A stretch of 64,000 nucleotides of DNA from Parcubacteria group bacterium (GTDB lineage Bacteria; Patescibacteriota; Patescibacteriia; Buchananbacterales; UBA6539), in the NCBI GenBank assembly GCA_002687175.1, contig NYZP01000034.1, positions 27,951-91,950 of the forward strand, written 5' to 3'. The notes below the pieces were generated by a model, which had not been told where the DNA came from, did not search any database, and saw only the letters and a program-made list of their open reading frames with translations. A program made the position numbers and the translations under genes. Below, piece by piece: positions 33,926-64,000 of the stretch (position 1 is the first letter of the stretch; each line of letters starts with the position of its first letter).

Positions 33926-34909
33926 ATGAATAGAAGTATGCCCGCCAAAGGCGGGTCCGCCTCTGGCGGAAAACAAAAAATTCTAGTGGCCGGTAGTGTA
34001 GCTTATGATCGGATAATGAATTTCCCAGGGTATTTTAAAGATAATATCTTGCCTAATAAAATTCATATCCTAAACGTTTCTTTTTTTATTCAGGATTTAA
34101 AAGAGAGTTTTGGTGGTACTGCCGGTAATATTGTTTATACTCTAGGACTATTAGGTGTTAAGCCAACTCTGTTAGCCAACGTTGGAGCCAAAGATTTTTC
34201 AGTTTATAAAAAATGGTTTCAAAAAAATAAAATTGATATTTCTAAAGTAAAAATTGTTAAAAATCAACAAACTGCCTCAGCATATATAATTACCGATAAG
34301 GCTGATAACCAGATTACTGGATTTTATCCTGGAGCAATGAAAGATCCAATAACTAAGAGTAAAATTGATTTAGCAAAAGTTGGCTTAGCTATTGTATCTC
34401 CTCAGCACCCGGTTGATATGGTAAATCTACCAAAAATTTTTCGAGCAAAAAAAATTCCTTATATATTTGATCCTGGTCAACAAGTAGCCTCACTGTCTGG
34501 TGCTCAATTAAAAAGCGCCATTATTGGCAGCAAGGTTTTAATTGGTAATGATTACGAAATCGCTCTGATACGGAAAAAAACCAGTTTATCTATAAACCAA
34601 CTTCTTAAAAAAACTAATATTTTGATAACCACCTTAGGGGCCAGTGGATCAATGTTGCGACAAGGGAGCAATACAATTAAAATTCCAGCCGCTAAACGAG
34701 CCAATACTCTTGATCCAACTGGTGGGGGCGACGCCTATCGGGCCGGTCTGATTAAAGGGCTAGTAGATGATTTACCTCTACAAAAAGTAGGTCAATTGGC
34801 TACGGTGACAGCTGTTTATTCAGTTGAAAAATATGGCACTCAAGTCCATAAGTTTACCAAGACTGGTTTAGTCAAGAGGTATCGACAAAATTTTAAAGAA
34901 CCTATATAA
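33926..34909 (+). CDS. PfkB-family (adenosine/nucleoside) kinase
   Basis: GSVAYDRIM, FGGTAGNI, FDPGQQ and DPTGGGDAYRAG motifs. Confidence 0.88.
   Translation: MNRSMPAKGGSASGGKQKILVAGSVAYDRIMNFPGYFKDNILPNKIHILNVSFFIQDLKESFGGTAGNIVYTLGLLGVKPTLLANVGAKDFSVYKKWFQKNKIDISKVKIVKNQQTASAYIITDKADNQITGFYPGAMKDPITKSKIDLAKVGLAIVSPQHPVDMVNLPKIFRAKKIPYIFDPGQQVASLSGAQLKSAIIGSKVLIGNDYEIALIRKKTSLSINQLLKKTNILITTLGASGSMLRQGSNTIKIPAAKRANTLDPTGGGDAYRAGLIKGLVDDLPLQKVGQLATVTAVYSVEKYGTQVHKFTKTGLVKRYRQNFKEPI
33942..33969. repeat. GC-rich palindromic element in frame in the pfkB-family gene (encodes AKGGSASGG)
   Basis: ccgccaaaggcgggtccgcctctggcgg; near-identical to 63190-63217. Confidence 0.85.
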
Positions 34910-36204: not shown

Positions 36205-36239
36205 TAATGAGACCCTGAAACAAGTTCAGGGTCTCATTA
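36205..36239. repeat. REP-like hairpin (ctgaaacaagttcag family)
   Basis: taatgagaccctgaa acaag ttcagggtctcatta; core shared with 41276-41338. Confidence 0.7.
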
Positions 36240-36292: not shown

Positions 36293-36796
36293 ATGATAAA
36301 AGAACGAAAATTAAATAGATATTCAAACTATAATTATAATTTACCAGGTTATTATTTTATTACGATATGTGTCCAGGATCGTATAAAGTATTTTGGAAAA
36401 ATTGGTGATGGTCGGATGATTTTAAATAAATACGGAAAAATTGCAATTAAATATTTAATGAAAATCCCAAATTTTTATACGAACGTTGCCATTGATGAAT
36501 TTGTGATAATACCAAATCATATTCACATTATTATTGAAATTAAATCCGTAGGGACAGAACAATGTTCTGTCCCTACGGGGGTCAAAAATATTAATTATGG
36601 TTTATTGTCAAAGGTGGTTAAATCCTTTAAAGACGTTACAACCAAAGAAATTCACGGTGCATTGAATGATTACCATTTTCAATGGCAACGTTCCTTTTAT
36701 GATCATATTATTCGAGATGAAAATGGTTTATATAATATTAGGCAATATATAATTAATAATCCTTCGCAGTGGAACAGAGACAGAAATAATGTTTAA
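36293..36796 (+). mobile_element. REP-associated tyrosine (Y1 HUH) transposase, RAYT-like
   Basis: GYYFITIC, PNHIHII and WQRSFYDHIIR...IRQYIINNP motifs; internal GTAG...CTAC palindrome. Confidence 0.88.
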
Positions 36797-40168: not shown

Positions 40169-40524
40169 TTGTCATCCCTGCGAAAGCAGGGATCCAGAAA
40201 TACTATGAGAAGTTACTATACATATATTTTAGCCAGTAAGAGAAATGGAACGCTTTATATTGGTGTTACTAATGATTTAGTCAGGAGAGTTAATGAGCAC
40301 AAAGAAGGTTTGATTAAAGGTTTTACCAGAAAATATAAAGTTAAAATGCTAGTTTATTATGAAGAATTTGATGACATTGGCTTGGCAATTCAAAGGGAGA
40401 AAAATTTGAAGAAGTGGAAGCGCAATTGGAAGTTACTATTAATTGAAAACTTTAATTCTAACTGGGAGGATTTGTACTTCAAGTTATTTTAAATGCTGGA
40501 TCCCTGCTTTCGCAGGGATGACAA
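40169..40524. mobile_element. GIY-YIG gene bracketed by perfect 29-bp inverted repeats, each itself a hairpin
   Basis: ttgtcatccctgcgaaagcagggatccag (40169-40197) and its exact reverse complement (40496-40524). Confidence 0.75.
40205..40492 (+). CDS. GIY-YIG nuclease family protein
   Basis: YYTYILAS.RNGTLYIGVTNDL.RR..EHK and AIQREKNLKKWKR.WK motifs; ATG 40205. Confidence 0.92.
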   Translation: MRSYYTYILASKRNGTLYIGVTNDLVRRVNEHKEGLIKGFTRKYKVKMLVYYEEFDDIGLAIQREKNLKKWKRNWKLLLIENFNSNWEDLYFKLF

Positions 40525-43957: not shown

Positions 43958-44010
43958 TTCCGCCAGAGGTAGCCTGTCCGTCCTCTGGCGGAGATGCGCC
44001 TATGGCGCAG
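43958..44010. repeat. Intergenic copy of the ccgccagagg/cctctggcgg palindromic element
   Basis: tccgccagagg-12nt-cctctggcgga followed by gatgcgcctatggcgcag. Confidence 0.7.
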
Positions 44011-63002: not shown

Positions 63003-63392
63003 ATGGCTAATAAAGAAAAAATTAAATTAGAGAAGAAAATTAGACGTAAAGGCCGAGTGCGGGTTAAAATTTCGGGAACCGCCAAGAAACCAAGGCTTAA
63101 TGTTTTTCGTAGTTTAAAACATATTTTTGTTCAATTAATTGATGATCAGAAAAGTGTTACGGTAGTTTCAGTTAAAGACTCCGAGATTTCCGCCAAAGGC
63201 GGATCCGCCTCTGGCGGAAAAGAAAGTAAAGTCAAAAAAACTGACATTGCATTTAAAGTAGGGGAACTAGTTGCTGTTAAAGCTAAAGAAAAAGGAATCA
63301 CCGAAATTGTTTTTGATAAATCTAGTAATAAATATCATGGCCGCATTAAAGCTGTAGCTGAAGGAGCCAGAAAAGGCGGCTTAATTTTTTAA
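63003..63392 (+). CDS. rplR: 50S ribosomal protein uL18 with in-frame palindromic insertion
   Basis: PRLNVFRS, VFD...YHGRIKAVAEGARKGGL; extra SAKGGSASGG segment. Confidence 0.97.
   Translation: MANKEKIKLEKKIRRKGRVRVKISGTAKKPRLNVFRSLKHIFVQLIDDQKSVTVVSVKDSEISAKGGSASGGKESKVKKTDIAFKVGELVAVKAKEKGITEIVFDKSSNKYHGRIKAVAEGARKGGLIF
63187..63220. repeat. 34-bp near-perfect palindrome inside rplR
   Basis: tttccgccaaaggcggatccgcctctggcggaaa (one mismatch). Confidence 0.9.
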
Positions 63393-63396
63393 AATT

Positions 63397-63960
63397 ATGG
63401 CAGATAATAAAAAAACCAGTAAATTTGGTAATGATAAAAGAGGTGGACGAGTAGTTGATCGTGAGTTTGATCAGGTTATCGTTGATATTGCCCGAGTGAC
63501 TCGAGTAATGGCTGGAGGCAAAAGAATGAGGTTTCGTGCTTGTGTGGCCATTGGTGACCGAAAAGGTAGAGTAGCCCAAGCCGTGGCAAAAGGAGCAGAT
63601 GTTACCTTGGCGGTTAATAAAGCAGTCGCTAAAGCTAAAAAGGTGATGATAACTGTACCAATCGTTAATGGTACCATTCCTCATCGAGTTGATATCAAGC
63701 TTGGTGCCGCTAAACTTTTGATCAAGCCGGCTCCTAAAGGAACAGGAATTATTGCTGGCGGAGCTGTGAGAACAGTTCTAGATTTGGCTGGTATTGCCGA
63801 TGTGGTGGCAAAAATATTAGGAACTAATAATAAGATTAACAACGTTAAAGCAACCATTGAAGCATTAAAAAGATTGAAACGAGTTGAGAAAACACCGGCT
63901 CAAGTTAAAGAAGAGCAGAAAAAAGTTGTTGAAACTGTTGAAAAAACCAAATCAGTATAA
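63397..63960 (+). CDS. rpsE: 30S ribosomal protein uS5
   Basis: RVTRVMAGGKR and GTGIIAGGAVR. Confidence 0.98.
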   Translation: MADNKKTSKFGNDKRGGRVVDREFDQVIVDIARVTRVMAGGKRMRFRACVAIGDRKGRVAQAVAKGADVTLAVNKAVAKAKKVMITVPIVNGTIPHRVDIKLGAAKLLIKPAPKGTGIIAGGAVRTVLDLAGIADVVAKILGTNNKINNVKATIEALKRLKRVEKTPAQVKEEQKKVVETVEKTKSV

Positions 63961-63963
63961 AAT

Positions 63964-64000
63964 ATGTCTGAACTATCCCTACACAATTTAAAGGTAAATA
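63964..64000 (+). CDS. rplO: 50S ribosomal protein uL15, 5' fragment
   Basis: MSELSLHNLK..., a typical L15 start, directly after rpsE. Confidence 0.75.
   Translation, partial: MSELSLHNLKVN

Follow-up and report, generated by a model that had tools for sequence, protein, structure and literature searches.

By what route could a GC-rich palindrome come to lie, in frame, inside the gene of a ribosomal protein? The question is raised by rplR, the gene of protein uL18, in a Parcubacteria genome of 1.12 Mb and 36.7% GC, whose proteins match those of Patescibacteria, several of these named Buchananbacteria. Within the window, which is the whole stretch of 64,000 nucleotides that was analysed, positions 63187-63220 read TTTCCGCCAAAGGCGGATCCGCCTCTGGCGGAAA, a palindrome of 34 bp that is centred on GGATCC and has a single mismatched pair. 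An earlier note on this DNA had taken it for a mobile mini-repeat that adds Gly/Ser peptides to proteins, comparable with the palindromic elements of Rickettsia but much shorter.

The insert in uL18

The product of rplR scores above the NCBIfam L18_bact cut-off. A uL18 protein was detected in all 30 related genomes, and the 29 with loci entered our alignment; none of these 29 carries the SAKGGSASGG insert. The relatives read E-I-K-x-x-K-x-K-K-T where the carrier reads E-I-SAKGGSASGG-K-E-S-K-V-K-K-T, and their empty site, EI^K, is mostly encoded by ATT or ATC followed by AAA. Since uL18 has 119 residues there and 129 here, 30 bp entered between ATT and AAA, without duplication (Table 1); the closest relative is only about 70% identical in amino acids, so the empty site is read at the level of codons and its bases are deduced. 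The palindrome is thus present as the earlier note described it, but its outermost two bases on either side belong to the host.

The peptide had been placed in a variable loop of uL18, and its residues do fall where homologues, solved uL18 proteins included, show gaps. In an AlphaFold2 model of the carrier the fold is intact (mean pLDDT 87.8), residues 67-73 score below 50, and the insert is predicted to add a floppy ten-residue loop. Among the 120 homologues listed of 3324 in the database, three are carriers, this one included; in the other two (P0070 and P0104) the loop holds an identical decapeptide, which in one of them also sits at EI^KES, as it does here. Three changes are required on the best tree to account for the three carriers, and the alternative that joins them in one clade is not rejected (p-AU 0.21). 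Two further homologues (P0003 and P0040) carry unrelated inserts of 10 and 18 residues in this loop, which possibly derive from another repeat family.

The conserved unit of the element was defined by its pairing. The folding z is about -5.6, and the minimum-energy fold, computed for the uL18 copy alone, is the long hairpin. Across 47 copies, picked by their GCC/GGC cores only, 265 of 282 free stem positions are paired in a model of two adjacent hairpins, against 154 of 282 in the long palindrome, and many of the changes are double. Because these family data overrule the fold of a single copy, the conserved unit is two short hairpins, and the 34-bp palindrome, although the lowest-energy fold here, was rejected as the unit. 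We call the 30-bp element the double hairpin (DH). On each strand, its 5' loop mostly ends in A. The same DNA had been reported, with one change, in a pfkB-family gene: the copy is there, at 33941-33970, while the single change applies to a 28-bp core only. Over 30 bp there are two changes, and together they replace the T-A that closes hairpin 1 by C-G, a single compensatory pair.

Table 1. Window coordinates of the double-hairpin element (DH), its host genes and related copies.
Feature	Position	Strand	Basis or remark
30-bp double-hairpin element (DH)	63189..63218	.	between rplR codons 62/63; encodes SAKGGSASGG, residues 63-72
Mini-hairpin 1, 6-bp stem, loop AAA	63189..63203	.	sequence; covariation over 47 copies
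Mini-hairpin 2, 6-bp stem, loop TCT (AGA on minus strand)	63204..63218	.	sequence; covariation
Host TT (end of Ile ATT), left half of TT^AA target, outside DH	63187..63188	+	codon alignment, flank profile
Host AA (start of Lys AAA), right half of target, outside DH	63219..63220	+	codon alignment, flank profile
rplR, uL18, 129 aa (relatives 118-119 aa)	63003..63392	+	predicted fold kept
Second DH copy, directly behind ancestral pfkB start, encodes PAKGGSASGG	33941..33970	.	pattern match
Ancestral start codon of kinase gene	33938..33940	+	closest homologues begin MKQKILV
In-frame ATG 4 codons upstream, likely present start (inferred); hairpin then at +16	33926..33928	+	
pfkB-family carbohydrate/nucleoside kinase, 327 aa from upstream ATG	33926..34909	+	
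Intergenic variant: DH outer arms and unrelated 12-nt centre	43959..43992	.	sequence
Single 15-bp hairpin of DH family (TGCGCC-TAT-GGCGCA)	43995..44009	.	sequence

The DH family in this genome and beyond

A degenerate pattern run on the window finds the uL18 and pfkB copies, with no match in 100 dinucleotide shuffles; in this genome, 13 forward matches compare with none for the reversed-pattern control. The genome holds 15 DH copies (16 matches minus one AT-rich chance match), that is, 14 besides the one in uL18: nine are coding, five sit inside duplicated pieces of tRNA genes, four of these without an adjoining gene, and one is intergenic. The coding copies are in uL18, the pfkB kinase, PheT, TrmD, RibH, a peroxiredoxin, a sugar dehydrogenase, a NUDIX protein and a DUF5667 protein, and eight of the nine were inserted between codons; partial copies occur in argS and uS11. 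The variant that had been noticed between genes near 43958 indeed has the same arms with a different centre. Rfam, run on four DH loci, recognised tRNAs only and no family on the DH itself.

These copies bear on the idea that a Gly/Ser linker arose in uL18 by ordinary mutation and was selected there, the likeness from gene to gene being convergent. The uL18 loop is length-variable, but the same bases occur in non-coding tRNA fragments, copies internal to genes lie in both orientations (47 + and 22 - among 69), stems change in compensatory fashion, and GC-rich codons are rare in this genome, where TCC makes up 1864 of 11992 TCN codons. With the peptide absent from all 29 orthologues, the stems covarying and copies spread genome-wide, a convergent linker is refuted, and we consider it highly improbable. 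Where an orthologue does share the peptide it also shares the codons, as in the pfkB gene of genome G012, which has the identical 30 bp.

Beyond this genome, the loose pattern was found in 26 of the 31 genomes of the relatives' set, at 0-44 copies each, and in 72 of 101 genomes of the class; the stricter pattern was found in 43 of 301 genomes of the phylum, and reversed controls gave zero. An exact-consensus scan of public genomes returned at least 120 copies. Among 80 matches listed, 20 are named from other phyla, e.g., Omnitrophota, Ignavibacteria, Kiritimatiellae and Zixibacteria, such titles of assembled genomes being at times possibly wrong. The DH family spans Patescibacteria and other phyla. 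Viral contigs and phage records gave no DH match, and 14 partial matches in plasmids (E about 0.9) are at chance level, so viruses and plasmids were dropped as carriers.

Many carriers are metagenome-assembled, and contigs break at the DH, as would be expected of an assembly or library artefact such as a linker or adaptor with a BamHI site. We regard this explanation as negligible: the variants are genome-specific and have compensatory pairs, the copies obey filters of frame and start codon, and contigs from two other studies (X2 and X3) start inside the DH and continue over the remainder of rplR, differing once and covering the right junction, and also show the flanks of the pfkB, pheT and dehydrogenase copies.

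The flanks of the 120 listed copies are T-rich on the left and A-rich on the right (T at -2 in 92, A at +2 in 106), with the consensus TT^AA. No target duplication was seen in 105 of these copies, which sets the DH apart from MITEs, with their target-site duplication and terminal inverted repeats that match an IS; 1 nt is repeated in 8, and 3-7 nt, with periodic flanks, in 7. Pairing between the left and right flanks beyond the DH shows no excess (0.85 vs 1.05 in shuffled pairs). Of the listed copies, 83 fall in frames open for 150 codons, and 70 of these separate two codons without splitting one, where about 42% would follow from the flank preference; no reading frame of the DH contains a stop, and selection for the Gly/Ser/Ala reading would explain this excess. 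We consider it very probable that the element is a mobile, translated and tolerated insert, which supports the earlier note's reading of a mobile repeat that adds peptides. We infer that SAKGGSASGG is translated as part of uL18, and the host probably tolerates the peptide without gaining any use from it.

Two groups of copies share a site. Ten of them (L092, L225, L233, L238, L244, L252, L263, L268, L295 and L297), always of the P-A-K variant, lie at one LHGxM^K site in orthologues 42-80% identical of a protein that we take to be RecG; the site may be another hot spot, or the insertion may be old and conserved. Five copies from Ignavibacteria (L069, L105, L113, L118 and L148) lie, in both orientations, at one site of a C-terminal domain that is presumably secretion-signal-like, showing DH activity outside Patescibacteria.

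The kinase copy and the start-codon filter

Since the closest pfkB homologues begin MKQKILV, the element landed directly behind the old start of the kinase gene. Four copies in this genome are preceded by M-x-x-x-M. We collected copies preceded by ATG from metagenomes, at least 119 in number, of which 107 are distinct and 37 N-terminal, a few of the 37 being orthologues. Going upstream from these 37, an in-frame ATG is first met after 4 codons in 22 cases, 5 in 8, 6 in 2 and 7 in 2; one copy has it 2 codons away and two have none. An upstream ATG at 4-7 codons thus accompanies 34 of 37 copies, compared with 15 of 465 comparable ATGs in this genome (391 have none). In E. coli, a hairpin at +4 was reported to lower translation 544-fold, and the initiation footprint to extend 12-14 nt, about 13 (10.1101/091470). 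With a spacing of 4 codons the hairpin stands at +16, which is the nearest in-frame position past that E. coli footprint; this suggests that the upstream ATG keeps the hairpin clear of the initiating ribosome and that it is used in pfkB, whose database entry begins at the second ATG. Among the 120 listed copies, which were not selected for an ATG, the few cases stand at +4 (one), +16 (two), +19 (three), +25, +37 and +52, and 14 are without an upstream ATG. Surviving coding copies appear to pass three filters: they lie between codons, in tolerant loops or N-termini, and at +16 or farther from the start.

Sixteen relatives of the pfkB family were compared, of which 14 are empty, one (G012) has an identical copy and one (G018) a decayed relic with neither hairpin nor upstream ATG. 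In G012 the position of the 30 bp matches as well, and an ATG of the gene's own stands 5 codons upstream. In the tree it nests among non-carriers on starred branches, and its union with this genome in one clade is borderline (p-AU 0.051). More than one hit at this site is probable, and the simplest reading is a preferred target that the element entered repeatedly; the alternative is long conservation of a shared copy.

Such conservation would be expected if the host kept the copies for a role in DNA or RNA, e.g., as a site for a dimeric protein, a recombination or uptake signal, or an mRNA structure, with spread by recombination that needs no dedicated enzyme. In favour of this, the two pfkB genes differ at none of the 30 DH positions and at 25 of 36 silent, four-fold sites, the A-GGC-N6-GCC-T core is two-fold symmetric, and positions 27 and 30, although outside the search pattern, are nearly constant (C in 97 and A in 102 of 106). 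However, the G012 identity can reflect a recent separate insertion, because close non-carriers surround that copy in the tree; the G018 copy has decayed; relatives range between 0 and 44 copies; and the stricter pattern is limited to 43 of 301 genomes of the phylum. We therefore judge a kept host role rather unlikely. A comparison of stems and flanks (12 of 303 vs 672 of 1070) is biased, most stem positions having been set by the pattern used for the search, its pairs are not independent, and it was not used as support.

A GIY-YIG nuclease, its tRNA cassettes and a probable means of spread

Ten GIY-YIG matches were found in this genome (G000). The gene at G000:C1:195899-196183 encodes P0001, a protein of 95 aa with domain PF01541. 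A DH at G000:C1:195854, 45 nt upstream, interrupts a 36+5-nt copy of the 5' half of tRNA-Ser at the anticodon loop, and the gene runs into a whole tRNA-Ser, giving a cassette of tRNA-Ser fragment, DH, nuclease gene and complete tRNA-Ser. Relatives of this nuclease occur in 65 of 101 genomes of the class. From about 168 matches we took 29, the best locus of each other genome by its resemblance to a DH-linked query; a DH lies within 130 nt upstream in 11 of these 29, against none of 29 Ssn-type loci (p 3e-4), and a tRNA on the same strand within 130 nt in 21 of 29, against 1 of 29. The gap from DH to nuclease is mostly 38-58 nt and at most 117; across the loci, the break that the DH makes in the tRNA piece falls in the D, anticodon or T loop, and a DH stands at both ends of some cassettes. 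The DH is present in 55 of 64 genomes with a P0001-type nuclease and in 13 of 36 without (p 5e-7, kinship not corrected). DH-bearing nucleases cluster on their tree (5 changes; shuffled mean 11.2, 0 of 500), and hairpin subtypes track nuclease subclades, subtype being confounded with tRNA target. The last DH base equals the first flank base at 59 of 98 ends (42.6 in shuffles), which may be a one-base microhomology or come from this same confounding.

The linkage has its exceptions. Eighteen of the 29 nuclease loci are without an upstream DH, several having other hairpins; a GIY-YIG gene stands beside only 2 of the 120 listed consensus copies, for which 300-600 nt were fetched; and class genome G088 has 39 pattern matches with no P0001-nuclease match at E 1e-8.

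Hairpin ends and the lack of a target duplication are hallmarks of HUH transposition. The DH has both, and it may have been moved in trans by another enzyme, likeliest an HUH one of the IS200/IS605 or RAYT type, sharing tRNA-fragment landing places with the nuclease genes. A RAYT-REP link is described (PMC3733652), four Y1 matches occur in this genome, the correlation of Y1 with DH across genomes is weak (p 0.08, 0.015 and 0.02 at thresholds 1, 2 and 3; for Ssn it is not significant), and most DH copies in tRNA fragments here are without an adjoining gene. Against this, none of 32 Y1 loci of about 3 kb each has a DH, the DH ends lack a GTAG or CGTC tag, and the DH keeps a fixed short distance before one clade of nucleases, with subtype following clade. 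Two reverse transcriptase genes (G000:C24:13636-14244 and C5:24307-24918) have no DH within 1.5 kb, and with the Ssn-type nucleases and Y1 transposases they were dismissed as DH neighbours. Movement by an HUH enzyme is in our judgement not likely. We prefer to think that the solo DH in uL18 was spread by the small GIY-YIG nuclease, with its DH-fronted genes in duplicated tRNA pieces, and put the probability of this at about 0.55.

According to the model, by analogy with Ssn, the nuclease would bind the DH where DNA is single-stranded, whether at a fork or while being taken up by the cell, and nick beside it, and host repair would then join the hairpin-bearing strand into a new site. At tRNA genes, 12-36 nt of tRNA sequence by the hairpin would let the whole cassette of tRNA piece, hairpin and gene enter, leaving a complete tRNA copy; elsewhere, the bare 30 bp would enter. 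Purifying selection would then remove all copies except Gly/Ser/Ala linkers clear of the initiating ribosome. Hairpin-specific cleavage of single strands by a small GIY-YIG protein has a precedent in Ssn (PMC11893778), whose behaviour is borrowed here, the nuclease lying outside the Ssn clade. The weak link is the joining step, which the model leaves unexplained: GIY-YIG enzymes hydrolyse DNA and are not known to have a joining step. Tentatively, and as less likely than not, we extend the model to a mobile system that works without a transposase. The nuclease and the 30-bp DH would travel together as a cassette with tRNA genes as its home, and solo hairpins would be strewn over essential genes with no duplication of the target, some sites being hit again and again; proteins, even ribosomal ones, would gain Gly/Ser linkers, and genes would be forced to shift their starts upstream.

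Several known systems resemble parts of this one. The Rickettsia palindromic elements are described as about 150 bp long, with shorter CGTC-tagged RPE-4/6 types (Ogata et al. 2000, 2002, as summarised in PMC10969869 and PMC3733652). Like them, the DH is a dispersed palindrome that lies in frame in unrelated housekeeping genes with a shared peptide, and also between genes, and the analogy first drawn holds; at 30 bp, as a double mini-hairpin without a CGTC end, in other phyla, with links to tRNA genes and to a GIY-YIG gene, and present in a ribosomal protein, it works like such an element but is not one, a separation drawn from published descriptions of those elements. The gene of the Ssn nuclease, which restricts transformation, is reported to be flanked by a short hairpin repeat (NTS/SRM) that is also dispersed in the genome, and in the parts of that source consulted no mobility is shown (PMC11893778). 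P0001, too, has a single GIY-YIG domain, a length of about 95 aa and a hairpin repeat beside its gene, but its type falls outside the cd10448/NTS clade and has another repeat, a tRNA-gene cassette and a hairpin mostly upstream only. It is 26% identical to this genome's Ssn-type protein, from which a branch with support 96 separates it, and its only solved relative is the UPF0213 protein 1ywl. NTS-like flanks occur at 22 of 29 Ssn-type loci vs 2 of 29 P0001-type loci, the NTS-flanked clade being called Ssn because its repeat resembles the published consensus. REP/REPIN-RAYT systems are described as GC-rich palindromes of 20-40 bp, some intragenic, with a partner enzyme gene (PMC3733652); the DH, in contrast, has no GTAG/CGTC tag, clusters or dimers, is mostly coding and has no Y1 partner at the loci above. 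Double-hairpin elements of fungal mitochondria are reported as very short, GC-rich, made of two adjacent hairpins, near-identical across diverged species and thought to be mobile, their mover being unknown (PMC10085805). The DH, too, consists of adjacent GC-rich hairpins kept by compensatory change, but the mitochondrial elements are, as described there, organellar and intergenic or in rRNA genes, and the likeness is structural only. A search of the literature, subscription papers and supplements apart, found no description of the DH, its peptide or the tRNA-nuclease cassette, and passages of a preprint on a genome language model did not name Patescibacteria or CPR; the DH is a coding palindrome with a candidate partner enzyme that is apparently undescribed.

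Other repeats and genes were observed nearby. In the window, an Ssn-type GIY-YIG gene (40205-40492) lies between inverted 28-bp NTS-like hairpins (40170-40197 and 40496-40523), and two close paralogues, at G000:C2:44950 and C32:5586, share these flanks, which makes a second nuclease-hairpin family in the genome. A RAYT-like Y1 gene (window 36293-36790; match at G000:C34:64426-64710) stands behind a palindrome at about 36208-36235 and a CAACATAGCGC motif, the latter also upstream of several GIY-YIG genes. More small GIY-YIG genes of the tRNA-linked type lie at G000:C15:228-570 and C30:38364-38900; one is behind a tRNA-Val, with a different hairpin in a duplicated tRNA end, and the sequence directly after the other is presumably RNase P RNA-like. 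A tRNA gene at G000:C1:200775-200899 is called by ARAGORN only with a 48-nt intron. At 63960-64000 of the window, rpsE is followed by an apparent rplO start with no rpmD (uL30) between; loss of rpmD is reported for these bacteria (PMC9297842).

The way in which coding palindromes, those of Rickettsia among them, are moved has been an open question since 2000, and the DH offers a case in which candidate enzyme, home site and hairpin are all visible and small enough for tests in the tube. Its copies map where essential proteins accept ten-residue inserts, the spacing of their ATGs is natural evidence, from uncultured bacteria, for an initiation footprint of about 13 nt, and gene callers misplace start codons at them. 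Streamlined genomes, then, harbour active selfish DNA within their core genes.
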